Source of the DNA: an uncultured Bacteroidia bacterium | GTDB lineage: Bacteria > Bacteroidota > Bacteroidia > JAIBAJ01 | Assembly: GCA_965284645.1 (NCBI GenBank) | Contig: OZ260106.1 | Span: 2,815,747-2,879,746 of the forward strand | DNA: 64,000 nucleotides | Reading direction: 5' to 3' | In this document: piece by piece, positions 178 through 59,883 of the stretch | Numbering within the stretch: position 1 is the first letter of the stretch | How the letters are laid out: each line of letters starts with the position of its first letter | Notes under the pieces: generated by a model | Told to the model about the DNA's origin: nothing | Database searches by the model: none | What the model saw: the letters and a program-made list of their open reading frames with translations, nothing else | Program-made: the position numbers and the translations under genes

Positions 178-236
178 TCCAAATTATAACTTTTATTTCC
201 ATTTTCACTTTATCTTAGCCACCAAATTACCAGTTT

Positions 237-3200: not shown

Positions 3201-3566
3201 AAATGGACCTACGAAAAGGACGAATACTATTCCGATTTGGAAGATGCCGTTTACCTTGATAATATTCGTTTACCTCTAGAAGTAAAAGAAGATACAACCT
3301 CTAGCATAGCTGAAAACAAGTCTTTCGTAGGTATGGTTTTGTCCCCAAATCCAGCCAGCCAAAACGTTTCCATACAATGGAATGGTTTCAATACAACCGA
3401 AACCTTGGTTCGCTTGGTAAACAGCTTTGGTCAGGTGATCGCGATTAAAGAAGCCAGCAACCTAGATAAAGTAAGCTTCCACGTTCAAGGCTTGGCAAAA
3501 GGACTTTATCAGGTGGAAGTGTTAGACTCAAAAAACCGAATCACCCAAAAATTGATTATTGAATAA
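237..3566 (+). CDS. Peptidase C25 (gingipain-like) family secreted protease with T9SS/Por C-terminal sorting domain
   Basis: N-terminal signal peptide. Gingipain-like catalytic region (VGDHEQIPAY, YTGHGSEYS, VSVGCVNGNF His/Cys dyad context). 1109 aa with Ig-like middle domains. C-terminal ~80 aa beta-rich tail (KGLYQVEVLDSKNRITQKLIIE) typical of T9SS CTD. Confidence 0.85.
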   Translation: MQSRIIACLTALFFLNTSLQAQTIYHDGSDYTELEVQFGQVVFRQVETNQGIASIPSLENTVPLLKKGAPQLLSRAVSLAIPNKAVASIEIISVESQSYANFNIAPSKGNLKRNQSPATVPYYYGPIYQQNALFPAQPAEISHTYNMRSVDGTCLKFYPLQYNPVTKELVQYSSIRVKVTYAYPNGQDFRKPALSKSFSSVMSRHFSNFGQAKYNTVAHGENMVIIAPSNYFETLAPFILWKQQIGYQVKLTDYATLGNEEALDQYIENEYLNNNVGYVLLVGDHEQIPAYNTNYGYSDNYYAMIQGDDWYPELFMGRFSAENTTQLNTMVQRVIRYEKFPQDNGNWYSEAACIGSSEGPGDDNEIDFEHERVIAGKMTGYTYTHAYELYDGSQGGNDAAGNPTPADLGNVLESGVSFVNYTGHGSEYSIVTTEFSSNEVNLLNNKDKYPVFVSVGCVNGNFTGMTCFAEEWIRATDDNGNPAGAIDAMMATINQSWNPPMSAQDEMVDILTEQYAGFNPKNFGCIANNGLMKMNDDYGDAGSEMTATWVIFGDPTTMVRTAVPSPLILSHVPTSPIGTSSLTVSGNVEGAVVSVTQNGVVLATGTISGGSAVLNFNPLSSLDSLEVIGFSFNTKPYLGGVTIVPNSGPFVGNHNWNLADLNGNGQQTASYNDTLRVLFNLENVGNGPSNNVVGTLTTTDPYITILDNTANFGDMVAGNYSGLIDAFGIKVATYVPNNHQASLNVSLLDDAGNTWNFTVQLTILAPVLQVSDNYFTETSGQINQSLESGENADVVLVLNNLGGASSPDIFGTLSTSSSFVHIVNPNVSGNPISVGNDDMYTFQIEVDADAPVNSYAYFTYTAAGGPYGDTFQFSIPVNQILETFETQDFSKFDWSFSGTEPWITTSYQPYEGNTCSKSGAITDSQTSILQLTIDVANQDSIAFFFRTSCELDWDFLKFFINDAQQNQWTGETPWNRVVYSVNPGENTFKWTYEKDEYYSDLEDAVYLDNIRLPLEVKEDTTSSIAENKSFVGMVLSPNPASQNVSIQWNGFNTTETLVRLVNSFGQVIAIKEASNLDKVSFHVQGLAKGLYQVEVLDSKNRITQKLIIE

Positions 3567-21206: not shown

Positions 21207-21698
21207 ATGAGGAAGGTGGTACGATACCTGTTTTTATTCTTGCTTAGTGCTGGGGCGCTTGCTTCGTGCAAGAAAACGGAATACGTTTATCAAATCGAAA
21301 ACGAAAACCTGTATGCCGATAATGCGGGCAAGGTAAAGGTGAAATCGGACGAACAATTTGTATCGATTCTGTATGCCAACCTTTTTCAAGAAGCACTGGG
21401 GGCCAACGAATTGGTGAGAGTGGTTCGTTGTATCCGAGCCAATGGTGATAAGGACTTGATCCACGAAGTACTGGTTTCTAATTTCATGAACCGTCCGGAT
21501 GTGCAATTGCCCGAAGCGGAATTTATGCGTTCCAATCCTGATTCATTTGTGGTAGAAACCTACAAACGTTTTTTGGTTCGGTATCCAACTGAAGCCGAGA
21601 AAACCTGGTTTAGGAATTATATCAATACCCATCCGACCGTTACACCTGAAATCGTTTACTCTTCCTTCGCTATTAGCAACGAATACCAATTTTACTAG
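21207..21698 (+). CDS. Hypothetical lipoprotein
   Basis: Lipobox LSAGALASC. First of four same-strand secreted-protein genes with 3-10 bp gaps. Confidence 0.45.
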   Translation: MRKVVRYLFLFLLSAGALASCKKTEYVYQIENENLYADNAGKVKVKSDEQFVSILYANLFQEALGANELVRVVRCIRANGDKDLIHEVLVSNFMNRPDVQLPEAEFMRSNPDSFVVETYKRFLVRYPTEAEKTWFRNYINTHPTVTPEIVYSSFAISNEYQFY

Positions 21699-21701
21699 GT
21701 T

Positions 21702-23039
21702 ATGCAAAGACGTTCCTTTATAAAGAAAGCCGCCACCGCCACAGCTGGTGCTTTTGCATTGCCTTATATTTTGCCGAGTGGTCGATTGTTTGCCTCTACC
21801 CAAGCTCCTTTAGCTCAGCATGTTATTTTAATCATGTTTGCCGGTGGTGTTCGGCAACAGGAAAGTGTATTGCAACGTTATTTGGACGATAGCCAAGGCA
21901 TGGGAATTCCGGGCAACATCATGTACAATATGTTCAATGGTGCCCCTCCAACAGCGAAGATTGTTTACGGTACCGATGGTTTTATTGCTGGTGATACACC
22001 CATACCTTCCTTGTTAAACCAAAGTTTACAAAGCCAAGGAACTTTGTTTTCTGAACTTCGCTCTGGCACTACAGGACACTACAACGGTTTAAATGCAATT
22101 GTTCAGGGAAATACCCTTTATACCCAAGGTTTGAAACAAAAACCAATTCATCCTACCATATTTGAATATGCCCGTCGCCATGGAAATTTTCCTGCATCGA
22201 AGGTGTGGTTTGTAGGCAATGGCATTGGAAATTCTACGCCTTTATTGAATTACAGTACCCATCCCGATTATGGTGCGGCTTATGGTGCTAATTTTTTGGC
22301 TCCAACCATTGTTTTTGGAAATGAAGGGTTAACCTATATGTCTAACAGCAAGGTTTACCATCCAGAAGAGGAATTGGGACCGATGTACGAAATGAAGTAT
22401 TTCCTGGATAAGAATTTTAAAAATGCTGCCGGAACCTTGGAAGGTATTCACAACACCGACGAAGAGAAGCAAAACATCAAGGAGTTCTTCAAAGAAATGT
22501 ACCAAAAATCTCAGGATGGTACCATTGCCTTTCCGCCGGTAGTAGACAATGGCGATTTGAAAACCATCGGTTATGCCTGCGAGGTAGCCAAATGGTTTAA
22601 GCCGAATGTATTAGCTATCAATATGAGTGCTGTAGATGGATGCCATAGCAATTTTACTGGTTATTTAAGGTCCTTGCACAGGGCTGATCATGCGGTGGGA
22701 CATATTTGGAACTATATTCAAACCCAGGTACCGGAAATGGCGGGCAATACTGCTATTATCTTGGCACCGGAATGTGGCCGAAACCTAAACCACAACCCCA
22801 TCTTGGACGAAAACGATTGGTATGCCTTCGATCACAGCGACCAAAACTCTTTGCGGGTTTTCGGAATGATGGCCGGCCCCTCCATTCCATCCAATTTAAC
22901 CGTTGGAAGCAATGTTCAACCTGTTGGAAATACGGTGGATATTGTTCCTACCATGGCTGAAATTTTAGGATTTAAAAACGAGGTGGTTTCTTCCGGACTA
23001 TTGGCTGGAGATTCCATGAGCTGGTTTGATCGATTGTAA
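21702..23039 (+). CDS. Tat-signal sulfatase-fold protein, DUF1501-like
   Basis: Twin-arginine-like N-terminus MQRRSFIKKAATATAGAFALP followed by HVILIMFAGGVRQQES (resembles the DUF1501 VIxLFxxGGxSxxD block). C-terminal D-H-containing blocks. Confidence 0.4.
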   Translation: MQRRSFIKKAATATAGAFALPYILPSGRLFASTQAPLAQHVILIMFAGGVRQQESVLQRYLDDSQGMGIPGNIMYNMFNGAPPTAKIVYGTDGFIAGDTPIPSLLNQSLQSQGTLFSELRSGTTGHYNGLNAIVQGNTLYTQGLKQKPIHPTIFEYARRHGNFPASKVWFVGNGIGNSTPLLNYSTHPDYGAAYGANFLAPTIVFGNEGLTYMSNSKVYHPEEELGPMYEMKYFLDKNFKNAAGTLEGIHNTDEEKQNIKEFFKEMYQKSQDGTIAFPPVVDNGDLKTIGYACEVAKWFKPNVLAINMSAVDGCHSNFTGYLRSLHRADHAVGHIWNYIQTQVPEMAGNTAIILAPECGRNLNHNPILDENDWYAFDHSDQNSLRVFGMMAGPSIPSNLTVGSNVQPVGNTVDIVPTMAEILGFKNEVVSSGLLAGDSMSWFDRL

Positions 23040-23042
23040 GCC

Positions 23043-24002
23043 ATGAGAAATACCAATTCCATAGCCGCTCTGTTTGGATTAAGCTATTTGCTTATCGTTT
23101 TGGATGCCTGTAAAAAAGAGGCACCAACTCCCTTTAGAAATGACGACGATACCGAGCAAACCAATCCTGATTCAGTAGCTCCGCCCGATCCAAAGAGTTT
23201 TGCCGGACTACAATACTATATTTTTAAACCAACTTGCGCCAACAGCGGTTGCCACGATGGAACTTTCGAGCCCGATTTCAGGACCATCCAAAGTAGCTAC
23301 AACACCTTGGTTTATAGGCCTATAATTAAAAACAATCCTCAAAACTCCTTTACCTTTCGGGTGGTTCCCTACCAACCGGATGCCTCCGTTCTGATAAACC
23401 GCCTAACTGTGGATATCGACGGATTGAGCGGAATTATGCCTTTGATTACCGATCCCAATGCCGAATGGAGCTTGAAAAAGGAGGAGCATATCCAAAATAT
23501 CCGGGATTGGATTTTGAATGGTGCAAAAGATGTGTTTGGTCAGGTTCCACAACCCGGTAACAGAGAGCCCCAATTGTTGGGCATTATGGTTACGCCGGTT
23601 GGAAGCACCACGCCCTATCCACGTTCCGGAACCAATGCGGTGGATGTAATTGCCGGTGTAGGTTCGGTTGATGTGTGGATTGCCGTAGGAGACGATAGCA
23701 CGGCTGCTTCCGCTTTGGGTAGTCCAAGTGTGAAATTCTCGGGTAATCCTTACGATTATAGTTCAGCTTCGGGAATAAACCTTCAAACTGTTCCTGGTGG
23801 AGTTTCCAATGTTGGTTTTAGCGGCGATATGGTTCAGTTTACCCACAAGGCAACCTATTCCATTCCTACTTTATTTGGCGATACCACCATCTTTTTCCGT
23901 TCCTATTTTCAAGATCCCAAACAGCCCGGGATAACCGAAATGCCTGAATCAGGTAGCTTGCAACATGTATTGGATTATTGTTCATTTAAACTTTCAAATT
24001 AG
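23043..24002 (+). CDS. Hypothetical lipoprotein with non-canonical CX4CH (CANSGCH) motif
   Basis: Lipobox LDAC. FKPTCANSGCHDG resembles the F..C..CH.G heme-c context but with 4-residue spacing. Confidence 0.4.
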   Translation: MRNTNSIAALFGLSYLLIVLDACKKEAPTPFRNDDDTEQTNPDSVAPPDPKSFAGLQYYIFKPTCANSGCHDGTFEPDFRTIQSSYNTLVYRPIIKNNPQNSFTFRVVPYQPDASVLINRLTVDIDGLSGIMPLITDPNAEWSLKKEEHIQNIRDWILNGAKDVFGQVPQPGNREPQLLGIMVTPVGSTTPYPRSGTNAVDVIAGVGSVDVWIAVGDDSTAASALGSPSVKFSGNPYDYSSASGINLQTVPGGVSNVGFSGDMVQFTHKATYSIPTLFGDTTIFFRSYFQDPKQPGITEMPESGSLQHVLDYCSFKLSN

Positions 24003-24011
24003 ATAAGGTAA

Positions 24012-24470
24012 GTGTTTGAAAATAAAAGAAATATAGTATTATTTTTTCTGTTCATTTTTGTATGGATTTTCATTGGTTCCTGCAAGAAAGAAACAGAAAC
24101 CAATACGGCTCCCGAAATCTCCAATCTGGTCATTACGCCGCATTCAATAATAGAGTGGGTAGATTCGGTAGAAATTCGCTTCGATTATAAAGATTTAGAA
24201 GGCGATATTGGAGAAGAAGATCCTAATATAAAAACATTGGAAATCAAAGATTCGAGACTTGATGAATCCGATTTCTACCACATTCAACCACTTACCCCTA
24301 ACGACAAAGTTTATTCGTCTCAAGGAACCTTAACGGTTAAGCTAAATTCCATGTTTAGATTGGGCAATGCCGCCTTCGAAAAATTCACCTTCACCATTTC
24401 TCTCCGCGATAGAGCTGGAAACAAGAGCAATGAAATTCGGAGTGATACCCTGCAAGTTGCGATTTTTTAA
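24012..24470 (+). CDS. Hypothetical lipoprotein
   Basis: Signal peptide/lipobox IFIGSC. 152 aa. Confidence 0.4.
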   Translation: MFENKRNIVLFFLFIFVWIFIGSCKKETETNTAPEISNLVITPHSIIEWVDSVEIRFDYKDLEGDIGEEDPNIKTLEIKDSRLDESDFYHIQPLTPNDKVYSSQGTLTVKLNSMFRLGNAAFEKFTFTISLRDRAGNKSNEIRSDTLQVAIF

Positions 24471-24532
24471 AGTTCCAAATTGCTTATGTTGTTATCTTAA
24501 TTTTTCTTACGTTTGTTAGTCAAATATCAAGT

Positions 24533-25606
24533 ATGAAAACAAAATCCTTAAAGTACTGGATGGTTATGCAAGGACCCATTATTGCTATCATTTCCTTTGT
24601 CGGACATGGTGCGCTTGCTTGGTTGTTGCCCATGTATGCCTTTGTTTTGATTCCAATCGCCGAACTGTTTTTGCCGGCTACAACCGAGAATATGTCGGAG
24701 GCTGAAGAAGAAATTGCCTTGGCCGATCCTTGGTACGATTGGGCCGTTTACCTCATGGTACCGATTCAATACGGTTTGCTGGCCTTTTATCTGTACACCA
24801 TTTGTTACACTGAAAACACCCTGTTTGAATTGGTCGGAAAAACATTTTCTATGGGTATAGGGTGTGGAATTTTAGGTATCAATTTGGGACATGAATTGGG
24901 GCACCGGATTAAGCCTTCCGAGCGATTTATGGCAAAAGCTTTGTTGCTCACTTCCATGTATATGCATTTCTTTATCGAGCATAACCGTGGTCACCATAAA
25001 AACGTGGCAACGCCTTTAGATCCAGCCACTTCTCGTTATGGCGAGATTGTTTATTTCTTTTGGTTTCGTTCCATTATCAACAGTTGGTTTTCGGCTTGGG
25101 AACTGGAGGTGAAGCGTTTAAAAAAGGATAATCAGCCCATACTTTCGCTGAGCAATGAAATGATTCGCTACATCCTTATTCAATTCAGTTTTTGCGCCTT
25201 CATTTTTGCCATATTCGGTTTAAAAGGATTGCTGGGCTTTTTGTCAGTTGCCTTTATTGGAATTTTACTTTTAGAAACGGTCAACTATATTGAGCACTAC
25301 GGTTTGACCCGCAAGAAAAGTCAAGGTGAAGCCTACGAGCGTGTTTTACCTGTTCACAGCTGGAATTCCAACCATGTCATCGGCCGTTTATTGCTTTTTG
25401 AATTGTCACGTCACAGCGATCATCACTATAAGGCGAGTCGTAAATACCAGATTTTGAGGCATTTCGAAGATAGTCCACAAATGCCTACCGGTTATCCGGG
25501 TATGATTGTTTTGGCCTTGGTTCCGCCTTTGTGGTTTTACGTGATGCACCGCAACATTGCCAAGTACAGCCAATTGCATCCAGAAGCGGTTAAAGCTTGG
25601 GCTTAA
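24533..25606 (+). CDS. AlkB-like integral-membrane alkane 1-monooxygenase / fatty-acid desaturase-family di-iron hydroxylase
   Basis: All four His boxes of the AlkB/XylM family: HELGHR, EHNRGHH, NYIEHYGL, HSDHH. Multiple TM helices. Confidence 0.8.
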   Translation: MKTKSLKYWMVMQGPIIAIISFVGHGALAWLLPMYAFVLIPIAELFLPATTENMSEAEEEIALADPWYDWAVYLMVPIQYGLLAFYLYTICYTENTLFELVGKTFSMGIGCGILGINLGHELGHRIKPSERFMAKALLLTSMYMHFFIEHNRGHHKNVATPLDPATSRYGEIVYFFWFRSIINSWFSAWELEVKRLKKDNQPILSLSNEMIRYILIQFSFCAFIFAIFGLKGLLGFLSVAFIGILLLETVNYIEHYGLTRKKSQGEAYERVLPVHSWNSNHVIGRLLLFELSRHSDHHYKASRKYQILRHFEDSPQMPTGYPGMIVLALVPPLWFYVMHRNIAKYSQLHPEAVKAWA

Positions 25607-25607
25607 T

Positions 25608-25764
25608 TTTTTTATTTTTTGGCGGGCACCATTCGCAAAAACAGGTTCGTCATTAAATTAAAATTTGGCAAGGCGAATGGTCGGGCTATACGCTGCAAGT
25701 CCTCGTCCAGTCTACGTTTCACTTCGTCTGTCCTGTGGGCTTTACGCTTCTATCCCTTCCCGGA
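25608..25764 (-). repeat. Mosaic repeat locus 4: solitary module B (minus)
   Basis: TTTTTTATTTTTGGCGGGCACCATTCGC...GGCGAATGGTCGGGCTATACGCTGCAAGTCCTCG...CCTGTGGGCTTTACGCTTCTATCCCTTCCCGG. Confidence 0.8.
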
Positions 25765-25839
25765 GCCTCCGAAATAGTTTTGGCAAATAGAACAAGCATT
25801 TGCTTTTCACTCAGTGTGGTAAAAAAATAAAGTAAGAAT

Positions 25840-26499
25840 TTAGGCCGCAGCCATTCTTTCCTTCTCTTTCAGGATTTCCAGGGTTTTCACGGCTTTTTTG
25901 AAAAGTGAACCTTGGTCTTGATTTTTTTCAGCTTTGGTGTAAATAGGTGAGGCAGGACTGAAAATAATGGCTTGGGTTGTATTGGCAAAAAACTGGGAAA
26001 GTTCAACTGCTTCTGTAGTGGAGTTTGCACCAAGAATAATGGTGGAATAGTCCATAAGTTTTAGCATAGTTTGGCTGTTGTAGTCACCAATAACGATAAT
26101 CCCCATTACTTTTTCCTGAATCACTTTGCTTAGTTTGTGCAGTTTAGAAATGGCATCGGATTCATTCATAATCCAAACAATTTGCTTTTCAGGAATAAAC
26201 TGAAGCGCTTCCAAGGCATTGGGAATGGACGAACTTAGGGAGTCGTTATAATAACTAACACCGTCAATGGTTGCTACTTTTTCGCACCTAGAATGACCTG
26301 AATAAACATCTGAAACGCTTTCTGATACTATTTCATGGTGCAACATTAGCAACAAGGTATCAAAATCATCTTCGGATGGAATGGCGGTTTGATTATATGT
26401 GGTGGATTCGACCATTTTTCGACGAGTAAAAATAGAAATTCTTTGGGTTCTTAACATAGTATTTTCATAAATAGTTAAAAAAAATCGGTCAACAACCAA
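25840..26499 (-). pseudogene. MurD-like (UDP-N-acetylmuramoylalanine-D-glutamate ligase) C-terminal half only; probable gene remnant
   Basis: Matches only the C-terminal ~190 residues of Mur ligases (YYNDSLSSS ~ INDSKATN; IIFSPASPIYTKAEKNQDQGSLF ~ [23 protein letters not shown]). It lacks the N-terminal Rossmann domain, the P-loop and the GGxDKG block. Only 118 bp of non-coding sequence lie upstream. Confidence 0.45.
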
Positions 26500-26617
26500 A
26501 CCTTTGCTTTTGCGCTTTCCTAAAATTTAGAATTCGCCAAGGACATAAGGTTTAAATGGTTTATTGGTTTTATCACCCAAATTATTAACTTTACCCAACT
26601 AAATAAAAGTATACTTT

Positions 26618-28198
26618 ATGAGAAAATTTACCTTTGGAATGCTTGTTCTCCTGTTCGGAACACTTGCAAATTCGCAAGCCCAAACTTGGTCGCAAGAAGT
26701 AGCTCCAATCATTTTTAATAAATGCGGGAGTTGCCATAATCCAGGAGGAGTAGGGCATTATTCTTTGCTAAGCTTTGAAGATGCTTATTATTTGCGTTAT
26801 TCCATCCAGGATAGAGTAGTGAACGGGAAAATGCCACCTTGGCCTCCAGATACAAACTATACTCGCTTATCCCATGAGCGAATTCTTACACAGCAAGAAA
26901 TTCAGACTCTTTCCGATTGGGTTGATAATGGTGCCTTAAGTGGAGATCTTTCCACAGCTCCCCAGCCACCAACCTACAACAATGGACCTGAACTTACTGA
27001 CTATGACTTGGAATTGACCATGCCAATTTATACCGTAAATACAGTTTCAGATTTGTATCGTTGTTTTGTATTGCCTCCTAATATTACTGAAAATAAAATG
27101 ATTACGGGATTAGAAGTTATTCCAGGCAATAAAAATATAGTACACCATGTGCTTGTTTTCTCAGATACAACCCACCAAGCCCAAGTATTGGATGCTGGCG
27201 ACCCAGAACCTGGATATACCAATTTTGGCGGTACCGGAACCCCCAATCCTACTTTATTGGCTGGCTGGGTGCCCGGATCAAGAGCCTTACAGATGCCTGC
27301 TAATTTTGGAATAAAACTGTTTTCCAATGCTGATGTAGTTATTCAGATTCATTATCCAGGTGGAGTTTTCAATGAAACCGATAGCACAAAAATCCGATTG
27401 AAATTTGCACCAACTGTCACCGGTATGAGACAAGTGAATACTGCGCCAATCCTGAATCATATAATTGGATTGACGAATGGACCATTGGTAATTCCTGCAA
27501 ATGAAACAAAAACCTTTTACACCTCCTATACCATTCCAGCTGTGAATGTTTCCTTGTTGAGTGTTGCGCCGCACATGCATCTCATTGGAAGAAATATTGT
27601 AGCATTTGCTGTATCTCCTCAACAAGACACCATTCCTTTTATTCGAATCAATGATTGGGATTTTCATTGGCAAGGTTTCTATAACTTCAAAAAAATAGTC
27701 AAAGTCCCAGCAAACTCTACCTTTTATGGCGAAGCATTTTATGACAATACGTCGAATAATCCAGCCAATCCCAACAATCCGCCTCAAACTGTTTCAGTGG
27801 GTGAAGGAACAGCCGATGAAATGTGTTTGGTTTATTTTCAATACACCCCATATTTTCCCGGCGATGAAAATATTACCATTGATAGTACGGACATATTAAC
27901 CGGAACAGAATCGTTTGATTTTTCTGATAAAATTAAAACGGTCCAACTTTACGAGCCTTATCCAAATCCTTCTAAATCCAACTTGGCCTATATTGATTTT
28001 TATCTTCCTGAAACTGGAGATGTGGAATTACAAATCCTTGATTTATCGGGCAAAACCGTATTTCAACAAAGTTGGAAGGCTATATCCAATGGAATCACAA
28101 CAAAAAAATTGGATCTGGGAGGTTTAGCTCAAGGATCTTATGTTTTCCGATTGGAATCCAATGGTTTAGTGCGAACAAAAAATTGGATAAAAGATTAA
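26618..28198 (+). CDS. Secreted fusion protein: N-terminal c-type cytochrome-like CxxCH domain + PHM/DBH-like copper type II monooxygenase domain + T9SS C-terminal sorting domain
   Basis: Signal peptide. IIFNKCGSCHNPGGVG (CXXCH). PHM-like ligand pattern IVHHVLVF ... QIHYP (CuH) and APHMHLIGR ... ADEMCLVYFQY (CuM His-x-His + Met). C-terminal YPNPS...LQILDLSGKTVF...GSYVFRL Por/T9SS tail. Confidence 0.6.
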   Translation: MRKFTFGMLVLLFGTLANSQAQTWSQEVAPIIFNKCGSCHNPGGVGHYSLLSFEDAYYLRYSIQDRVVNGKMPPWPPDTNYTRLSHERILTQQEIQTLSDWVDNGALSGDLSTAPQPPTYNNGPELTDYDLELTMPIYTVNTVSDLYRCFVLPPNITENKMITGLEVIPGNKNIVHHVLVFSDTTHQAQVLDAGDPEPGYTNFGGTGTPNPTLLAGWVPGSRALQMPANFGIKLFSNADVVIQIHYPGGVFNETDSTKIRLKFAPTVTGMRQVNTAPILNHIIGLTNGPLVIPANETKTFYTSYTIPAVNVSLLSVAPHMHLIGRNIVAFAVSPQQDTIPFIRINDWDFHWQGFYNFKKIVKVPANSTFYGEAFYDNTSNNPANPNNPPQTVSVGEGTADEMCLVYFQYTPYFPGDENITIDSTDILTGTESFDFSDKIKTVQLYEPYPNPSKSNLAYIDFYLPETGDVELQILDLSGKTVFQQSWKAISNGITTKKLDLGGLAQGSYVFRLESNGLVRTKNWIKD

Positions 28199-28298
28199 AC
28201 AAAAAATAATCTGTTTAAAATCGTTAATTCATAATAATATGAACGATTTTCTAATATTTTTATCCCCTCTATTAACCTGTAAACCTTAAAAAATCACT

Positions 28299-29966
28299 AT
28301 GGATAAAAATCTGTGGCTAAAGAATTACCCGGAAGGTGTTCCGCATGAAGTAAGCCCTAATACATTTAATAATGTAGTCGAAATTTTTGAACAAAGTTGT
28401 AAGAACTACAGCGACCTACCTGCCTTTGAAAACATGGGCGCCGTATTGACTTATGCTGACTTAGAAAGGTTGGCTACCAACTTTGCTGCCTATCTTCAAA
28501 ACAAAACGGATTTGGTACCAGGCGATAAAATTGCCATTCAGATGCCAAATATTTTGCAATATCCCGTGGCCTTGTACGGAGCTATGAAAGCTGGATTGAT
28601 TGTGGTGAATACCAATCCGCTTTATACACCAAGGGAAATGGAATACCAATTCAAGGATTCAGGAGCAAAAGCCATTGTTATTGTGGCCAACTTTGCTGAT
28701 AGCCTTGAACAAGTAATAAAAAATACCTCTATCAAACATGTTTTCCTAACCGAAATCGGCGATTTGATGGGATTCCCAAAGAAACATATCGTCAATTTCG
28801 TTTTGAAATATGTTAAGAAAATGGTTCCAAGCTTTAACCTTCCGCAAGCCATTTCTTTTTCTTCTGCCTTGGCCGATAATGGGTTGAAGTTTAAAAAGGT
28901 AAAAATCCTACCGGATGATATAGCCTTCCTACAATATACCGGCGGTACAACTGGGGTTTCTAAAGGTGCCATTTTGAACCACTTCAATATTGTGGCTAAT
29001 ATGGAACAAATGAATGCTTGGATGCAAACTGCCGTGAAAGATAGAATTGAAGTTATCATCACGCCATTGCCGCTTTACCATATTTTCTCCTTAACGGTAA
29101 ACTGTTTAGGGTTTATGTCGAAAGGTGGTAAAAACGTTTTAATCACCAATCCAAGAGATATTCCAGGTTTCGTAAAAGAACTGAAAAAACACAAATTCAC
29201 TATCATTACAGGGGTGAATACATTGTTTAATGCATTACTTAATAATGAGGAGTTCAATAAATTGGATTTCAGTCATTTAAAAGTAACAGTTGGAGGTGCG
29301 ATGGCTGTTCAAAGACTGGTAGCCGAGCGTTGGAAAAAAGTAACTGGTTGTGTATTGACCGAGGGGTATGGTTTAACTGAAAGTTCACCTGCAGCATCAG
29401 CCAATCCAATCGTAGGAGGTAAGGATCGCATTGGTACCATAGGTTTGCCAATTCCTAGTACCGAATTCAAATTGATGGATGATGATGACCAAGAAGTTCC
29501 ATTGGGACAACCCGGTGAAATCTGGATTAAAGGTCCTCAAGTGATGCAGGGTTATTACAACAAACCAGATGAAACTGCAAAAGTGATTACAGTAGACGGC
29601 TGGCTAAAAACAGGTGATATAGCAATCTTCACTGAAGAAGGCTACTTCAAAATCGTGGATCGTAAAAAAGATATGATTTTGGTATCTGGATTTAATGTGT
29701 ATCCGAACGAAATCGAAGATGTTGTAGCTTCTTGTCCTGGAGTTTTGGAAGTAGCCGCTATCGGTATTCCGGACGAAAAATCAGGCGAAGTAGTGAAAAT
29801 CTTTGTAGTGAAAAAAGACCAAAGTTTGACCGAAGATGCGGTGATGGCTTATTGTAAAGAAAACCTAACTGGTTATAAATTACCTAAACACATCGAATTT
29901 AGAGCTGAACTTCCAAAAACCAACGTTGGTAAAATCCTTCGTAGGGCTTTGAGAGACCAGAAATAG
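28299..29966 (+). CDS. fadD: Long-chain-fatty-acid--CoA ligase
   Basis: AMP-binding signature [29 protein letters not shown], and a conserved C-terminal Lys. Confidence 0.9.
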
Positions 29967-29985
29967 TAAAAATTCACGCAAAACA

Positions 29986-30022
29986 AATGCCCAGTTATTC
30001 TGTAGCTGGGCATTTTTCTTTT
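29986..30022 (+). terminator. Rho-independent terminator after fadD
   Basis: AATGCCCAG / CTGGGCATT 9-bp stem, 11-nt loop, followed by TTTCTTTT. Confidence 0.6.
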
Positions 30023-30036
30023 AAATCCTGCTCCAA

Positions 30037-30648
30037 ATGTATATTCCTAAACAATTTTCTATGCCCGAAGGCGATGTGCTGGACTTTATTCGATCCAATC
30101 CATTCGGAATTTTAGTAACAGCAGCAGCAGATGGCATAAAGGCTACGCACATACCATTTCATGTAAAGGAAACAAACAATTCTTGGGTGCTTTGGGCCCA
30201 TTTAGCGGGTGCTAATCCACATGCTTCTTGCTTGTTGGAAAAGGAACATTTAGCTATATTTTCAGGTGTACACGCTTACGTTTCCTCTTCTTGGTACAAA
30301 AATGTAAATGTTTCTACCTGGAATTACGAGGCCGTGCATGTTACAGGAACTATCCAATTGCTTTCTGAATCAGAATTGTTGGAGGCGCTAAACGAACTAA
30401 CCAATTCCTATGAGCATGGACAAGAGTCGCCGCTCACATTAGACAAAATTCCAACAAAAATGGTTTCTGCTTATTTGAAGGAAATTGTAGGCTTCGCATT
30501 TCATCCCCAAAAGGTAGAAGCAAAGGCAAAGCTCAGCCAAAACCGCAACCGGCAGGATCATGCTTCCATTGTTTCTCACCTTGAAAAACAAGTTGACCCC
30601 TTAGCTCAAGAAGTGGCCAAAAAAATGAAGAAGAACCGACTAGGCTAG
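30037..30648 (+). CDS. paiB: PaiB-family FMN-binding negative transcriptional regulator
   Basis: MYIPKQFSMPEGDVLDFIRSNPFGILVT N-terminus typical of PaiB/YwhH-like proteins. 203 aa. Confidence 0.7.
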   Translation: MYIPKQFSMPEGDVLDFIRSNPFGILVTAAADGIKATHIPFHVKETNNSWVLWAHLAGANPHASCLLEKEHLAIFSGVHAYVSSSWYKNVNVSTWNYEAVHVTGTIQLLSESELLEALNELTNSYEHGQESPLTLDKIPTKMVSAYLKEIVGFAFHPQKVEAKAKLSQNRNRQDHASIVSHLEKQVDPLAQEVAKKMKKNRLG

Positions 30649-33600
30649 GAGGGAGGTCCTTCTTTTATTACTTCAACCCAAGTTCCTGATTTACGAGCAT
30701 AGTAAGAATTGTCGTACATCGCTTCTACGCTCGGACCTGAAAGGAAGAATTTACCCAAATAGGCAGCATTCAATTGAATTCGGTACACCTTGGTTTGGTT
30801 CTTTCCTAAATTGAAATAGGTATAAACCCTATCATCCCTAATATCTTGGTAAGTGAAATCGCTGTTGGCAACTTGCGCTCCTAAATTGGTGTTGTCTTCC
30901 ATGCGCACATTTCTGATTTCCCATCCCGAAGCAAACACCTGCGACAAGGCCAATTGACGAATATCGATTCCTGACATGGCATTGGCTAGGGTAACTTCGG
31001 CCACAAAGTCTGTACCTTGGTTCAAGTGGCTTATGTCAATAGGATTGCCTTTTAGGTCTTTATAGGTGACTTTCATTTCCATATTAGATGATTCGTCCTT
31101 GGTTTGCTCAAAACTGGGTCGTCCGGTGGTCGTTAACTGAATGAACATTGGGCCTGCTCCTGCATCATTCTTAATGGTGATTTTTCCGAAAGGTTTGGCA
31201 TTTAAATCAATGGATTTTTTGAAACTCAATCCGGTGGTTTTAATACGGGTGTTGGTTCCGTTAATACTTAAGCTTCCCGATAATCCTTTTTGCTTGGAAT
31301 TGCCAACGAATTTGCTCATAGCCATTAAACTATAAGCGGTAGTTTGGGTACTGTAATAAGCATCCCTGTTTAATTCCAAGGCTAATTCTTTGGCTTTCAT
31401 TCCAGCTAATCCGGTTTGTCCCAGCAGTAGCATGGTTTCCAAAATCATGGCATCATCCCGTGTGCTTGAACCAAAGCTATAATCCATTTCCCTGTAGGGT
31501 TTTACTTTATTGGCTTGGTTTTGAACTAATTTCAGGGCCACATCTTTTTGTCCGGCCAAGGCATATGCGGCTGCCAATCGCCACCTTGCCTGGAGACTCA
31601 GGTTAGCTTTTTCTCGTAATCGGTTCATGGCGCTTAATACCGGAACTTTGGCTAAGGCCAAGGTATACAAGCGATAGGCTTGGGTATGGTCATCGTCGGA
31701 ATAATAATAATTCAAATACGCATTTGGTCTCCAGCTTAGGGCCGCCTTCTTTTGGAATTCAATCCATTTTGATTTCCAGCCGCTGGGTAAACTGTAGCCT
31801 TGAGCTTCGGCTTCCAACATAAAATGTCCACTGTAATTGCTTCCCCAATGGTTTGGATCATTTTCCCCCGGCCAATAACTCATTCCGCCATCCGTAGTTT
31901 GGAACCCTTTCAGGCGTTTAATTCCTTCTATGATATTTTTATCAATTGTGGCTTTGCGGTTTGGATCCAAATCCATAACCTTGCTTAAATACAATTGAGG
32001 GAAAACGGAAGATGTAGTTTGTTCTACACAGCCATGTGGGTAAACAATCAAATAATCCAGTCGCTTTTCTAGGTTGAAATTTTGAATGCCCGAGACTTCT
32101 ATGGTAGCTTTGTTTGTGCCAGCCGAACCAAATGAAGCGTAGTCAAGGCTGATGGATTGTCCGGCTGGAACCACCTGATTCGAGGTTCTTGAAACAGGCA
32201 TATTGGGGTTTCTAACCTCGATTTCAATTTCATCTTTCGAATGGTGACTACCTGAACTGGCTTCCACGGCAATTTTTGTAACCCCTACACTGTTTTTTAC
32301 TTTCAATTCAAAGGTTGCTACTTGGTCGCCAACTTCATTAAAGGTTAAGGATTGAGTAGGATTGGAAACAACTGAAACTAGATTTCCTGCCTTTACCTTG
32401 AGGGTAACGTTTTTAACCGATTTTTCCATGGCAAACACCGTAACCGGAAGTTTTACAGTTTCTTCTGGTCCGAGTACTCTTGGCAAAGTAGCCAGTACCA
32501 TTAAAGGTTTTCTAACTGCAACTGTTTTTTCGGCTAGGCCATAGGCTCCATCTTGTCCGGCCACTACCATAACCCTCACCGAACCTACATATGGTGGAAC
32601 ATCGATAGCGTGGTTCTTGGTTTGTCCGGCTGGAAGGTAAAAAGGACCAACGAAACGTACCATAGGTTTAAAGCGGTTGGCTTTGGAACCTTCTTTGCCA
32701 TGTAAGCCTTCATCACCTCCAATTCCTAAAACGGTTTCAATTTCGCCGGCCCAAGCTCCAATTACTTGGTCGAACAAATCCCAAGTCCTTACGCCAAGCG
32801 CCTCTCTGGCATAAAAACTTTCCCAGGCATCCGGAGTTTTGAATCGGGTAAGGTCCAACAAGCCTTCATCCACAATGGCTAAGGTATAGGTCATTGCCTT
32901 GCCATTGGCTTCGCTAATTTTTACATTGGTTTTGCTTTCCGGTTGCAAAACTTCAGCCATGGAAATACTAGGTTTCAGGTGGGTATTGGGATCTTCTATC
33001 CGTATTGGAATAACGCCATATTGCCGAATGGGCAAATCATTAATGGTTTGCTTAAAAGGCTGCACCAGGGTGACATACGCATAAATATTCGGTGTCATTT
33101 CGGAAGAAGCTTTGAATTTTACTTCATTTTGTCCCTTGTTTAGGCTCACCCAAAAGGCTTTTAGCACTCTTGAGCCCGTTTCTAGGCTTATCAGTGCACG
33201 GCTGTTTTCCATGGCCGGAATGGAAAGTTTGATGTCATCGCCAGGGGCAAAAACCTCCTTGTTGGCACTAAAGTTCACGGTCGAAGGTGCTTTTCCGCCA
33301 TCACCTTCTCGGGTCCACCAATTTTCCCAATCAAACCAAACTTCGGAGCTGGTGCAATGTCCGCTTTCCAAATCGGTAATGCTTAGGCGGTACCTTCCCC
33401 AATCATCATTTTCGATTTTGAAGTTAAAATTACAGGTTCCATTGCTGCCGGTAGTTTCTTCGAGTTCAATCTTTTGATCGCCATATTCATAACTTTCGTA
33501 ATCGTAGTCGCCATCTTCATTGTCCCACCACCATCTCCAGGATAATTTCTTAAGAACCATTTTTAATCTTCGTCCATTGGCTGCTGCTCCTTTTTCTGTA

Positions 33601-36254
33601 ACGGAAATAGCCTTTATAGTTTGGTCTTTTCCGGTTACCAAAGGTTTGGGTTGAAGGGCATCACCAGGTTTGATAAATCCTGCATAGTGGGAATATGGAG
33701 AATAATCCAAGGAGTATTTGTCTATACTAAAATTACCTCCTTCTTCATAAACCCTCGTTTTAAAATAAACCCTGGCCATACCGTTGCCTTTGGCTTGGTC
33801 ATTGAATTGGAGTTTGAAATTTGTTGCTCCATTTTCATCCAAACGCCCATCAAAAACACTGGTTTCTTCACTTTCCAATTTACTGATATTGTTTTCGAAA
33901 TAGTAATTTTTAAAGGCTTTAAATTCGGTTGGAATTTTAGAGAAACTCATATTGACATCAGCCTTTAGGTTTCGGGCAGGTGTGCCATGCAACCAATTGG
34001 AAGTTAAATGGATGGATGGGGCTGTTTCATTGGAGTAGTATTTTTCCGTTCCGGGATCAAGCTTGATTTTGAGTCGATTAGGCATAACCGTTTCAATTTT
34101 CAAAGTTTTGGAAAAATTGGTGGATCCTACCTTGAAATTGGCTGTCCAGTTTCCGGTTGGACTGCCTTTTTCGGTAACCACTGTGAAATTGTAAAAACCA
34201 TTGAGGGGATTGGCTTTTACCATTCGATGGAACAATTGTCCTTGGGGTGTAAGCAGTTCCATGGTTACCGGGAAATTCTTAGGAAGTTTTTTAAGCTTAT
34301 CTTCTAAAATCAAGGTCAGGAAAAGGCTATCGCCAGGTCTCCAAACACCTCTTTCACCATAAATAAAGGCCTTTATTCCTTTTTGAACCGTTTCGCCACC
34401 AATATCGAACATGCCCAATTGTTGGTTCGACCATTCATCCACTTTTAAATAGCCTCTTTCTTTTCCTTTTTTAGCAACCAAAATAAAGGGATTGGTTTTA
34501 AGGGTTGTCAAAACCAGGCCTTCGTCGTTGGTAACACCTGTGAATATCAATTGTTTTTGAAAATCATAAACTTCCACGGTAATACCTGCCAAGGGTTGGG
34601 TTGTATTCAAATTGTTTACCGCCACCATGAAGGTATTGTCGTTGCCACGTTTGGCGACCATGCCAAAATTTGAAGCCAAAATATTTCGGGATTGTGCACC
34701 AGCTTCGCGGTAATAGGCAGCATTGCAAGGATTGTTGCGTTGCGACCAGTCGTAGCCAGATTCATATGCATCATAATCCATTTCTGAATAGTCGTTGTAA
34801 TAGCCCCAACGTGTAGGCCCAACTTCCTCTTCTTGAGTAGATTTAAGTTCTTCCAATTCGATGGGTTTGTTTTCCTGTCCGGGACAATCGCAAATGCCAA
34901 AACTTTTTTTGAAGCTTAAACTAACCCTGTAAATGGCTCCAGGCTCGGTTTTTACCAAGGATGAAATATCGATGCCATACCTTTTCCATTCGTTCGAAAC
35001 AGTAGTGGAATTGTTTAAGAGAATAGTCTTTTTCCGAACGACCTTTCCAACCCTGCTCAGTTCTCTGTCTTCGTTTAAGGCATTGGTTTGGAGGAACTGG
35101 GTAATATTGTTTTCAAAAATCTTTACCACTTTTACATCTACTGCCTTAAGGTTAATGGCTTCGAAGGGCAAAACCAAACCTTTGCCATCGGGCAATATGC
35201 TGCCCGAACCAAGAATTTTTACAGCGGGCGAATTATTGGAAAAGGAAACGGTGGAGGCATAATCGCTGCCCAGTTTCTTGCCTTTGGCATTGGCAAGGTC
35301 GCCTAAAACGCGCAAGGTATAGGTTCCAGAAACCTTAGTGGAGGTGTATAATCTGACCTCGTTATGGGCATGGTAATATTTGAGATCACTTAATCCTTCT
35401 ATTTCGAACAAACCATTCGGAATTAAGCCTTCAGACAAGATATCTGAAAACTGTATCGAAATGTATTGATCACCTGCATTCACGGCTTTTACCCGGGTAA
35501 CTTTAAAGGTGGAGAGCGATGGAATTTCCACGTTGATCAATCCATCCTTTTCTAATCCGATCGACGAAGCATTGTATTGAATCTGCACTTCGGATGCTGC
35601 TTCTCCACGGTTGATGCTGTCGATGGTAAAGGTGTGGGTGCGTTGGTCGGTACTGTGCACCCAACTAGAATTCAGTTTGTCGCGACCTTGTCCGAATTTA
35701 AAAAAGCCTTCCAATTGTTGTCCGTCGATAGCATCAGCTGTTTTTACGGTACCTAAAATTCCAACTTTGTTTTCCAGACTTAGGGAATAACCGGCCACAT
35801 GGTCGATTTCCACTTCAATGGCTTGTTGGATGGTTTTAAAGGCAAAGTTGAAAGACTTTAAATCCTCTTTTACCGGAAGCAGTTTGTCGAGCTTGAAACT
35901 GGCCTTATACACCTGATCGGAGGGAAGTTTTTGATCGGGTCTGAATTCGATTGTTTTGGAATCGGTCCACACCACTTTTCCAGCAATCGAAGGTTCAAAG
36001 TCGAAATATTCGTTCGGAACTGGTGTATTCAATTCCACCGGTATTCCTACATCGGCAGAAAGGAGGATTTTTACCGGACTTTGGGTTGAAATGACCCCGG
36101 CGGTAAACGCTTGGATGTATTCAGCAAATTCCGGATTGATAGGAGGGAAGAGCTCCGAATGAATAGCGCGGGCATTGCTGCAATGAAAGGATTTAAAAGT
36201 AGATAAAGAAATGAGGATGCCTCCAAGAAGGCTGAGGATGAATATCCGTTTCAT
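30645..36254 (-). CDS. Bacterial alpha-2-macroglobulin family protein with intact thioester motif (GCVEQ)
   Basis: 1869 aa. Signal peptide. MG/bMG domains. Thioester YPHGCVEQTTSSVFPQLYL. Receptor-binding-like C-terminal domain. No pbpC neighbour. 4-bp convergent overlap with paiB. Confidence 0.9.
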   Translation of the reverse strand: MKRIFILSLLGGILISLSTFKSFHCSNARAIHSELFPPINPEFAEYIQAFTAGVISTQSPVKILLSADVGIPVELNTPVPNEYFDFEPSIAGKVVWTDSKTIEFRPDQKLPSDQVYKASFKLDKLLPVKEDLKSFNFAFKTIQQAIEVEIDHVAGYSLSLENKVGILGTVKTADAIDGQQLEGFFKFGQGRDKLNSSWVHSTDQRTHTFTIDSINRGEAASEVQIQYNASSIGLEKDGLINVEIPSLSTFKVTRVKAVNAGDQYISIQFSDILSEGLIPNGLFEIEGLSDLKYYHAHNEVRLYTSTKVSGTYTLRVLGDLANAKGKKLGSDYASTVSFSNNSPAVKILGSGSILPDGKGLVLPFEAINLKAVDVKVVKIFENNITQFLQTNALNEDRELSRVGKVVRKKTILLNNSTTVSNEWKRYGIDISSLVKTEPGAIYRVSLSFKKSFGICDCPGQENKPIELEELKSTQEEEVGPTRWGYYNDYSEMDYDAYESGYDWSQRNNPCNAAYYREAGAQSRNILASNFGMVAKRGNDNTFMVAVNNLNTTQPLAGITVEVYDFQKQLIFTGVTNDEGLVLTTLKTNPFILVAKKGKERGYLKVDEWSNQQLGMFDIGGETVQKGIKAFIYGERGVWRPGDSLFLTLILEDKLKKLPKNFPVTMELLTPQGQLFHRMVKANPLNGFYNFTVVTEKGSPTGNWTANFKVGSTNFSKTLKIETVMPNRLKIKLDPGTEKYYSNETAPSIHLTSNWLHGTPARNLKADVNMSFSKIPTEFKAFKNYYFENNISKLESEETSVFDGRLDENGATNFKLQFNDQAKGNGMARVYFKTRVYEEGGNFSIDKYSLDYSPYSHYAGFIKPGDALQPKPLVTGKDQTIKAISVTEKGAAANGRRLKMVLKKLSWRWWWDNEDGDYDYESYEYGDQKIELEETTGSNGTCNFNFKIENDDWGRYRLSITDLESGHCTSSEVWFDWENWWTREGDGGKAPSTVNFSANKEVFAPGDDIKLSIPAMENSRALISLETGSRVLKAFWVSLNKGQNEVKFKASSEMTPNIYAYVTLVQPFKQTINDLPIRQYGVIPIRIEDPNTHLKPSISMAEVLQPESKTNVKISEANGKAMTYTLAIVDEGLLDLTRFKTPDAWESFYAREALGVRTWDLFDQVIGAWAGEIETVLGIGGDEGLHGKEGSKANRFKPMVRFVGPFYLPAGQTKNHAIDVPPYVGSVRVMVVAGQDGAYGLAEKTVAVRKPLMVLATLPRVLGPEETVKLPVTVFAMEKSVKNVTLKVKAGNLVSVVSNPTQSLTFNEVGDQVATFELKVKNSVGVTKIAVEASSGSHHSKDEIEIEVRNPNMPVSRTSNQVVPAGQSISLDYASFGSAGTNKATIEVSGIQNFNLEKRLDYLIVYPHGCVEQTTSSVFPQLYLSKVMDLDPNRKATIDKNIIEGIKRLKGFQTTDGGMSYWPGENDPNHWGSNYSGHFMLEAEAQGYSLPSGWKSKWIEFQKKAALSWRPNAYLNYYYSDDDHTQAYRLYTLALAKVPVLSAMNRLREKANLSLQARWRLAAAYALAGQKDVALKLVQNQANKVKPYREMDYSFGSSTRDDAMILETMLLLGQTGLAGMKAKELALELNRDAYYSTQTTAYSLMAMSKFVGNSKQKGLSGSLSINGTNTRIKTTGLSFKKSIDLNAKPFGKITIKNDAGAGPMFIQLTTTGRPSFEQTKDESSNMEMKVTYKDLKGNPIDISHLNQGTDFVAEVTLANAMSGIDIRQLALSQVFASGWEIRNVRMEDNTNLGAQVANSDFTYQDIRDDRVYTYFNLGKNQTKVYRIQLNAAYLGKFFLSGPSVEAMYDNSYYARKSGTWVEVIKEGPPS

Positions 36255-59276: not shown

Positions 59277-59373
59277 CTTTTTGAAAATTAGACTATTAGC
59301 TTTTTAAAATTGTATTTTTTGTCTTTGCCGAAGCCAAAGATTCATCTTTTTTTGATTAGACAAGTCGCAAAGT

Positions 59374-59883
59374 GTGGAATTTCTTTGTCCTCGAAATTTA
59401 ACGAACATGAAAAAAGTAATATTAGTCTTTATAGTTATACTTACCATTCCTGCCTTCAAAGTGGCAGGTCAAACAGTAGTTTCAAATGCTGGGACCTATT
59501 CGTTTCAAACAAACTATTCAGTAAATTGGACCTTGGGTGAGGTTATAACTTCAACCATTTCAAATTCTTCCACTACACTAACACAGGGTTTCAATCAGGT
59601 AGCCGGCACAATTGTAGGCATTGAAATTCCCTTTGAATCTTTTAATTTTCGTATTTACCCGAATCCATTTGAGGACGAAATTAACATCCAAGTTGGCGGA
59701 TCATTTGTTTCAGGAACCAATTTTAAAATTACGGATTTAGCGGGTCAAGTTGTAGTTGACAATGGTACCCTTGCGGGAACTAATACGGAATTAAGCTTAG
59801 GTCATTTGGTGCCAGGAATCTATTTCGTATGCTTTTCTAATTCCACCAACCATACCAGCTATAAAATTATCAAAACCAAATAA
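59374..59883 (+). CDS. Small secreted protein with T9SS/Por C-terminal sorting domain
   Basis: Signal peptide. C-terminal IYPNPFEDEINIQ...GIYFVCF...YKIIKTK typical T9SS CTD. Confidence 0.6.
   Translation: MEFLCPRNLTNMKKVILVFIVILTIPAFKVAGQTVVSNAGTYSFQTNYSVNWTLGEVITSTISNSSTTLTQGFNQVAGTIVGIEIPFESFNFRIYPNPFEDEINIQVGGSFVSGTNFKITDLAGQVVVDNGTLAGTNTELSLGHLVPGIYFVCFSNSTNHTSYKIIKTK

Follow-up and report, generated by a model that had tools for sequence, protein, structure and literature searches.

Can a single bacterial protein addressed to the outside of the cell combine a c-type cytochrome with the two-copper core of peptidylglycine alpha-hydroxylating monooxygenase (PHM) and dopamine beta-hydroxylase (DBH), and if so, where would such an enzyme take its electrons from and what would it oxidise? 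This question is raised by a gene of an uncultured Bacteroidia bacterium that lies within a 64,000-nucleotide stretch of contig OZ260106.1 (positions 2,815,747 to 2,879,746, assembly GCA_965284645.1), hereafter called the window. The original prediction, made from the letters of the window, described a four-part protein with a signal peptide, a CXXCH cytochrome c-like domain, a PHM/DBH-like two-copper core and a domain for the type IX secretion system (T9SS). Our analysis confirms this architecture and, with the linker counted, finds five parts: a Sec signal peptide, a cytochrome c-like domain of ~90 amino acids, a linker, the PHM/DBH-type core and the T9SS domain (Table 1). The strings on which that description was built are all present in the translation, namely FNKCGSCHNPGGVG (C36, C39, H40), IVHHVLVF (H176, H177), QIHYP (H245), APHMHLIGR (H319, H321) and ADEMCLVYFQY (M402). 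We propose, with a probability of roughly 55%, that the product is a secreted or cell-surface, self-contained haem-copper monooxygenase in which the tethered haem would replace ascorbate as the entry point of electrons into the CuH site.

The catalytic part of this proposal is carried by domain models, sequence alignments and predicted structure. In Pfam, Cu2_monooxygen (PF01082) matches residues 132-246 with 31.4 bits (cut-off 30) and Cu2_monoox_C (PF03712) matches residues 302-411 with 42.5 bits (cut-off 23), while the C terminus is recognised by Por_Secre_tail (PF18962; residues 448-518, 35.3 bits, cut-off 27) and by TIGR04183 of NCBIfam (residues 448-525 of 526, 37.9 bits, cut-off 23). Both halves of the copper monooxygenase and the sorting domain were thus found above cut-off, as had been anticipated, whereas the cytochrome models stayed below theirs in the whole protein. 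Among all PDB sequences, phmmer matches human DBH (4zel) with an E value of 5e-8, in an alignment where H176-H177 coincide with the HH pair, H245 with the third CuH histidine, H319-x-H321 with the CuM sequence H-T-H and M402 with the methionine of EEMC. Rat PHM is reached by a profile of 34 homologues, in which H319/H321 correspond to H242/H244 and Q352 to Q272, with the PHM numbering offset derived from the positions of H242/H244; for the roles of the aligned residues we follow PMC12164859. A full-length AlphaFold2 model computed from the 34-sequence alignment has a mean predicted local distance difference test score (pLDDT) of 86 and a predicted template modelling score of 0.81, and a Foldseek search of this model against the PDB returns DBH 4zel at the top (E 1e-14), followed by ~29 PHM entries with template modelling scores of 0.6-0.69 on the target (0.67-0.69 for rat PHM, the 1phm/1sdw family). 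Because DBH and these PHM entries precede any unrelated fold, the His/Met pattern lies within a genuine PHM/DBH fold, on which the original prediction would otherwise have foundered.

The residues of both cofactor sites are conserved to a striking degree. In the alignment of 34 homologues, C36, C39, H40, M72, P73, P74, W75, H176, H177, H245, H319, H321, E401 and M402 are invariant. Counted among residues present in 150 cluster representatives at 50% identity, the haem residues C36 (137 of 138, the remaining one being Y), C39 and H40 (both 138 of 138) and M72 (145 of 145) are kept as well as the copper residues H176/H177 and H319/H321 (149 of 149 each), H245 (149 of 150, one D) and M402 (142 of 142). 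Q352 is found in 145 of 147 representatives, and its PHM counterpart Q272 hydrogen-bonds the CuM ligand H242 (PMC12164859). A sister branch, described below, shows the haem motif and M72 in 120 of 120 proteins and the copper ligands in 119, the exception being a gap. Such near-invariance across ~270 diverse relatives argues against a chance origin of the haem and copper motifs and, together with the alignments to DBH and PHM, bears out the earlier claim of a complete CuH and CuM ligand set. One family member, P0167, has YxxCH in place of CxxCH with its remaining ligands intact, which may be due to haem attachment through one thioether bond or to an error in sequencing; some known cytochromes bind haem with a single-cysteine xxxCH motif.

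The N-terminal domain very probably binds haem c, as judged from its sequence pattern and its relatives. The pattern of residues 22-112 is W..VAPI....C..CH..G...F.L..Y.DA..., followed by MPPWPPD and by a C-terminal helix that closes with WV..G. Haem_bd (18.5 bits) and Cytochrome_CBB3 (16.6 bits) both fall short of their cut-off of 27 when the whole protein is scanned, and the cytochrome scores across all scans of the studied protein range from 16 to 22.5 bits against cut-offs of 21.3-27. When 22 isolated domains were compared with Pfam, all 22 matched Haem_bd and Cytochrome_CBB3 (best E 1e-6 and 1e-5), 18 matched Cytochrom_C and 13 matched PccH, each time below cut-off; homologue P0164 exceeds the Cytochrome_CBB3 cut-off (34.1 versus 27 bits). 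A profile search of the PDB with the haem domain gave weak matches only, the top two (E ~0.03) being CcoP and the C-terminal haem domain of hydrazine synthase alpha, and the best structural matches of the predicted fold are the c-type cytochromes PccH and FoxE. Some relatives are labelled "mono/diheme cytochrome c family protein" by JGI. By analogy with the chemistry of class I cytochromes c, M72 of the MPPW motif is likely to be the sixth haem ligand.

Is this fusion a peculiarity of one genome? With a word-indexed search, 2,493 relatives were found at E <= 1e-3; the 120 closest matches are all ~520 amino acids long with the same architecture, are unnamed or called just "T9SS type A sorting domain-containing protein", and contain CXXCH in 119 cases, the exception being N-terminally truncated. 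An exhaustive search of 1.84 billion cluster representatives, for which the sorting domain was removed from the mature protein, yielded 2,107 clusters at E <= 1e-30 and 6,249 at E <= 1e-10. The cytochrome domain is present in 145 of the best 150 cluster representatives (the other five are N-terminally cut fragments), and a T9SS domain is recognisable in 102 of them. A census of carriers with one genome per species, restricted to two sequence patterns, found 542. The best 80 of these are metagenome-assembled genomes (MAGs), nearly all labelled as Bacteroidota lineages and none with a protein more than 60% identical to the one studied, from lakes, streams, groundwater, soil and wastewater.

The sister branch, at 36-40% identity, shares the cytochrome c plus PHM-like module with its ligands and is likewise uncharacterised, but its proteins begin with an AhpC/TSA-redoxin-like domain and lack the T9SS tail. 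Its members come from Armatimonadota (Fimbriimonadales) and from Planctomycetota, including the cultured Tuwongella immobilis (P0381). The CxxC pair of the redoxin-like domain is missing in 112 of 120 proteins. Since the module remains constant while each phylum adds its own accessory domain, we regard the cytochrome-PHM pair as the conserved unit. As a side observation, the redoxin-like domain of this branch (P0252 and 119 relatives) mostly has a single cysteine, for example SSECPAV, and databases label these proteins ResA, redoxin or peroxiredoxin, overlooking the copper monooxygenase part.

The combination appears to be uncharacterised, as had been suspected. PDB sequence, profile and fold searches found no solved structure of a bacterial PHM/DBH-type protein, the solved relatives being animal DBH and PHM only, and a full-text literature search found no study of bacterial PHM-like or cytochrome-fused members, with subscription journals mostly outside its coverage, so that a paper may have been missed. 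In a 2020 metalloproteome review, PHM and DBM appear among the copper proteins restricted to eukaryotes. The catalytic scaffold is known, whereas we rate the cofactor combination, the predicted cellular address and the kingdom as new.

Table 1. Features of the haem-copper monooxygenase gene and its immediate neighbours (positions in the window)
Feature	Coordinates	Strand	Basis or remark
Whole gene	26618..28198	+	526 codons plus stop at 28196..28198; homologues of equal length and architecture
Predicted signal peptide, residues 1-21 (MRKFTFGMLVLLFGTLANSQA)	26618..26680	+	Read by eye from the translation; aligns with homologue N termini
Mono-haem class I cytochrome c-like domain, residues 22-112	26681..26953	+	
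CGSCH haem c attachment motif (C36, C39, H40)	26723..26737	+	Conservation
MPPW motif (M72, candidate distal haem ligand)	26831..26842	+	Conservation
Linker between haem and CuH domains, residues 113-130	26954..27007	+	A114, P115 and P118 conserved in 34-sequence alignment; pLDDT ~70-77
CuH beta-sandwich domain, residues 131-263	27008..27406	+	PF01082; Foldseek to DBH 4zel and PHM 1phm
H176-H177, CuH ligands	27143..27148	+	Align to the HH pair of DBH/PHM (PHM H107/H108)
H245, third CuH ligand	27350..27352	+	Aligns to PHM H172
CuM beta-sandwich domain (O2 and substrate), residues 274-412	27437..27853	+	PF03712; Foldseek
H319-M-H321, CuM ligands	27572..27580	+	Align to PHM H242/H244
Q352	27671..27673	+	Aligns to PHM Q272
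M402, CuM methionine ligand (EM motif)	27821..27823	+	Aligns to the methionine of DBH EEMC
Type A T9SS C-terminal sorting domain, residues 445-526	27950..28195	+	PF18962, TIGR04183; beta-sandwich in the model
AlkB-like gene	24533..25606	+	FA_desaturase 91.5 bits; AlkB histidine boxes
MurD C-terminal-domain gene, 219 aa	25840..26499	-	Between the AlkB-like gene and the monooxygenase gene
FadD-like gene	28299..29966	+	NCBIfam match of 866.7 bits, cut-off 884

The two ends of the protein suggest where it would act. Residues 1-21, with a basic n-region, a hydrophobic core and S-Q-A ahead of the mature end as read by eye, probably form a Sec-type signal peptide. At the other end, the T9SS domain weakly matches the solved C-terminal domain 8glj_D, and two more open reading frames (ORFs) of the window, at 219..3566 (+) and 59356..59883 (+), match a T9SS profile built from the studied family (E 1e-6 and 5e-8), which would fit an organism that uses this system. 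The T9SS carries folded cargo across the outer membrane, and surface enzymes often bear spacers of the PKD or Ig type; in longer relatives of the studied protein, PKD, Ig-like, BiPBP_C or InlB-B-repeat spacers precede the T9SS domain, and others duplicate the whole module. No report of a T9SS-exported haem c protein was found in the literature searched, and no cytochrome maturation genes were found within the 64-kb window.

How would such a protein work? PHM consumes two electrons per turnover, which ascorbate delivers one at a time to the two coppers, CuH being the electron-transfer site and CuM the site of O2 and substrate (PMC12164859). In the mechanism we propose, Sec would export the protein into the periplasm, where it would be loaded with one covalent haem c at C36-x-x-C39-H40 and with two copper ions, and the folded protein would then cross the outer membrane through the T9SS by means of its C-terminal sorting domain. 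CuM (H319, H321, M402) would bind O2 and hydroxylate a C-H bond of the substrate, and CuH (H176, H177, H245) would give the second electron, so that the path would run from an external donor over haem c to CuH, on to CuM-O2 and into substrate hydroxylation. A role of the haem as built-in electron donor is plausible, and we place the entry point there because the haem is tethered to the CuH domain through the conserved linker, because the two are strictly co-conserved and because bacteria generally lack ascorbate. The position of the haem domain, N-terminal to CuH, is that of the DOMON domain in DBH. The substrate would not be a C-terminal glycine carboxylate, since small or hydrophobic residues occupy the carboxylate-binding positions of PHM in the studied protein.

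The surroundings of the gene were expected to say more about the substrate than they do. As the original prediction stated, an AlkB-like and a FadD-like gene flank the monooxygenase gene, but on the AlkB side a divergent minus-strand gene intervenes, separated from the monooxygenase gene by 118 bp. The AlkB-like protein, an integral-membrane hydroxylase, has readable boxes (HELGH, EHNRGHH, NYIEHYGL, LSRHSDHH); no rubredoxin gene was noticed beside it. The intervening ORF matches positions 290-440 only of TIGR01087 (E 2e-16, far below cut-off) and is kept divergent from the monooxygenase gene in two relatives, which suggests a stand-alone Mur-ligase C-domain protein rather than a recent pseudogene. 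In one relative, the MAG GCA_019695265.1 (73% identity), synteny extends over the whole 19-36 kb stretch with AlkB and FadD kept; in the other, a contig with 80% identity, the MurD-like gene and FadD are kept and a response regulator takes the place of AlkB. Beyond these two close relatives the arrangement does not persist: a tblastn comparison of all 11 window neighbours with 80 related loci found none conserved, and de novo clustering of the flanking ORFs recovered only repeat-rich secreted proteins and housekeeping synteny blocks (NamZ/DUF1343-like, LolE-like, aminotransferase, amidinotransferase-like and methylmalonyl-CoA mutase), with no redox partner recurring in the flanks. Because no neighbour is conserved beyond the lineage, the monooxygenase gene seems to be a stand-alone unit, and the AlkB/FadD neighbourhood is lineage-specific and uninformative on the substrate.

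This bears directly on the reading in which the enzyme takes part in alkane or fatty-acid oxidation together with its neighbours, an idea close to the earlier suggestion of a hydrophobic or polymeric substrate inferred from the same context, which the comparison of loci does not support. FadD follows on the same strand at a distance of 100 bp, both flanking genes recur in the 73%-identity MAG, FadD also does in the 80%-identity contig, and the pocket positions near CuM are hydrophobic. However, AlkB is missing from that contig and from all 80 related loci, 2 of which show weak FadD-like matches elsewhere in the locus; the MurD-like gene separates AlkB from the monooxygenase gene; and AlkB and FadD are intracellular or inner-membrane proteins, whereas the studied protein carries a secretion tag. 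We consider participation in such a pathway very unlikely. The same low standing is given to a true bacterial peptidylglycine alpha-hydroxylating enzyme that would amidate secreted peptides, even though fold and metal ligands match those of PHM. In PHM, Arg240 forms a salt bridge to the C-terminal carboxylate of the substrate (PMC12164859). In the hidden Markov model alignment this residue, at position -2 from HxH, falls on Ala317 of the studied protein, and in the 150 cluster representatives this place is mainly taken by A, F, M, S, T or L, arginine lying outside the six commonest residues, and mostly M, T, G, A or L in the 120 sister-branch proteins, with arginine again outside the commonest ones. 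The position two residues past the methionine ligand, which we take to be that of Asn316 in PHM, is hydrophobic in the 150 representatives. Further, the protein is nearer to DBH than to PHM by sequence, and neither a lyase (PAL) partner nor a precursor-peptide gene recurs nearby in the 80 related loci. The missing carboxylate-binding arginine thus argues against a peptidylglycine hydroxylase, just as the missing DOMON domain, for which the Pfam scan of the studied protein gave no match and in whose place the model has a helical domain, argues against an architecture of the DBH/MOXD type. With the carboxylate residues, the disulfide set and DOMON all absent, the protein would belong to the PHM/DBH superfamily outside every characterised subfamily, and its sequence suggests an enzyme that is PHM-like in chemistry and not in substrate.

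Other readings concern the haem. The CXXCH motif might mark not a haem site but a thiol/disulfide or metal-binding module, for instance for copper delivery, in keeping with the sub-threshold Pfam scores, the poor model at residues 38-49 and the one relative with YxxCH. We judge this improbable: an invariant histidine follows the second cysteine and an invariant Met-Pro-Pro lies 32 residues further on, which together make the signature of class I cytochromes c, nearly all members match three independent cytochrome c families, and the fold matches c-type cytochromes. Alternatively, the fusion may be real with a copper core that oxidises a substrate or reduces O2 and with electrons running from copper to haem to an acceptor, as in an oxidase or dehydrogenase-like enzyme, or with the haem as a sensor or structural element. 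PccH and FoxE, the best structural matches of the haem domain, help to exchange electrons with electrodes or Fe(II) outside the cell or in the periplasm, and no electron donor is encoded nearby, both of which would suit a reversed flow. Yet O2-activating monooxygenases, which use two electrons per turnover, have just these features, namely complete ligand sets for CuH and CuM, the glutamine equivalent to Q352 and a fold of two domains; moreover, the haem sits on the CuH domain, the part of PHM that accepts electrons. We therefore rate reversed flow or a non-redox haem as unlikely, and hold each of these alternatives, including amidation, the AlkB/FadD role and a non-haem CXXCH, to be less likely than a self-contained monooxygenase fed through its haem. 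Several observations nevertheless weigh against the latter: (i) residues 38-49 around CXXCH have a pLDDT below 50 and are the least confident stretch of the model, which is no surprise for a haem site in a model that lacks the cofactor; (ii) PHM has five disulfides, whereas the studied family keeps one partly conserved cysteine beyond CXXCH (C149, in 94 of 150 cluster representatives; C403 occurs in 8 of 150); (iii) no conserved neighbour gene in the 80 related loci indicates a donor or a substrate; and (iv) the proposal does not account for the electron source of a surface haem outside the cell.

Comparison with known systems helps to place the proposed enzyme. With PHM it shares two beta-sandwich domains, the three histidines of CuH, the His-x-His plus Met of CuM and the glutamine that hydrogen-bonds the first CuM histidine; it differs in its low identity (~17-18%), in lacking Arg240 and apparently Asn316, in having no conserved disulfide set and no PAL partner, in adding a haem domain and a T9SS tail, and in belonging to a bacterial rather than an animal or algal family. 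Among DBH/DBM, tyramine beta-monooxygenase and MOXD1, DBH is the best match in sequence and structure, and it too has an extra domain N-terminal to CuH. In DBH, however, this is a DOMON beta-sandwich, which to our knowledge does not carry haem there, instead of an alpha-helical cytochrome c, the C terminus is a dimerisation domain instead of a T9SS domain, and the enzyme depends on ascorbate. Functional parallels exist outside the superfamily. Copper nitrite reductases of the Ralstonia pickettii type pair an electron-transfer copper with a catalytic one and have a fused mono-haem cytochrome c as built-in donor, but they have a cupredoxin fold, reduce nitrite, are periplasmic and show no homology to the PHM core. 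In the pair of cellobiose dehydrogenase (CDH) and lytic polysaccharide monooxygenase (LPMO), an extracellular haem domain on a linker gives single electrons to a secreted copper mono-oxygenase; there, the haem is of type b, its domain has a DOMON-like fold and belongs to a protein distinct from the copper enzyme, the organisms are fungal and the copper site is a mononuclear histidine brace.

Some further features of the window were recorded. Rfam gave zero matches in 24000..30500, the base composition is ordinary, and a promoter and terminator scan, made with a scanner that has no model of Bacteroidota promoters, stayed at chance level; TAACTTTA at 26586..26593 is similar to the Bacteroidota -7 motif and was not counted as evidence. 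Two minus-strand ORFs within the gene (27028..27327 and 27287..27787) were taken as shadow ORFs. Upstream, 21207..24470 (+) holds a four-gene cluster with ORFs of 163 (lipoprotein-like), 445 (twin-arginine signal), 319 and 152 amino acids, which has no Pfam or NCBIfam family above cut-off and is fully syntenic in GCA_019695265.1. Its 319-residue ORF (23043..24002) contains TCANSGCHDG (C-x4-CH) and later GIMPL...IRDWILNGA, a layout resembling the studied cytochrome domain; a second cytochrome-like domain was rejected here, as hhalign gave a probability of 19% over the last helix only. Downstream, 30645..36254 (-) encodes a 1869-residue bacterial alpha-2-macroglobulin-like protein, whose syntenic homologue in L081 has bMG, A2M and TED domains in Pfam.

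What the family may mean depends on how much of this reading holds. It is tempting to see in it a widespread class of self-sufficient extracellular haem-copper monooxygenases that attack inert C-H bonds in polymers or hydrophobic matter and are fed by environmental reductants instead of ascorbate, an extension that we offer as speculation and regard as unlikely in this full form. If true, bacteria would have at their surface an equivalent of the CDH-LPMO pair of fungi on the PHM scaffold, and the class, with more than 2,000 clusters at 50% identity, would be shared by Bacteroidota, Armatimonadota and Planctomycetota. PHM and DBH are textbook animal enzymes whose working is still debated, namely how the second electron gets over the ~11 Å gap between the coppers and whether ascorbate has a role beyond copper reduction (PMC12164859). 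A relative with a covalent haem would provide an optical handle to inject and follow single electrons, and its turnover without ascorbate would be a natural test if the haem is indeed the electron entry. On the side of the organism, the studied protein would exemplify a haem c protein exported by the T9SS. Bacteroidota are major degraders of organic polymers, and because the sorting domain of this Bacteroidota protein would direct it to the cell surface, the enzyme may represent an unrecognised extracellular oxidative route.

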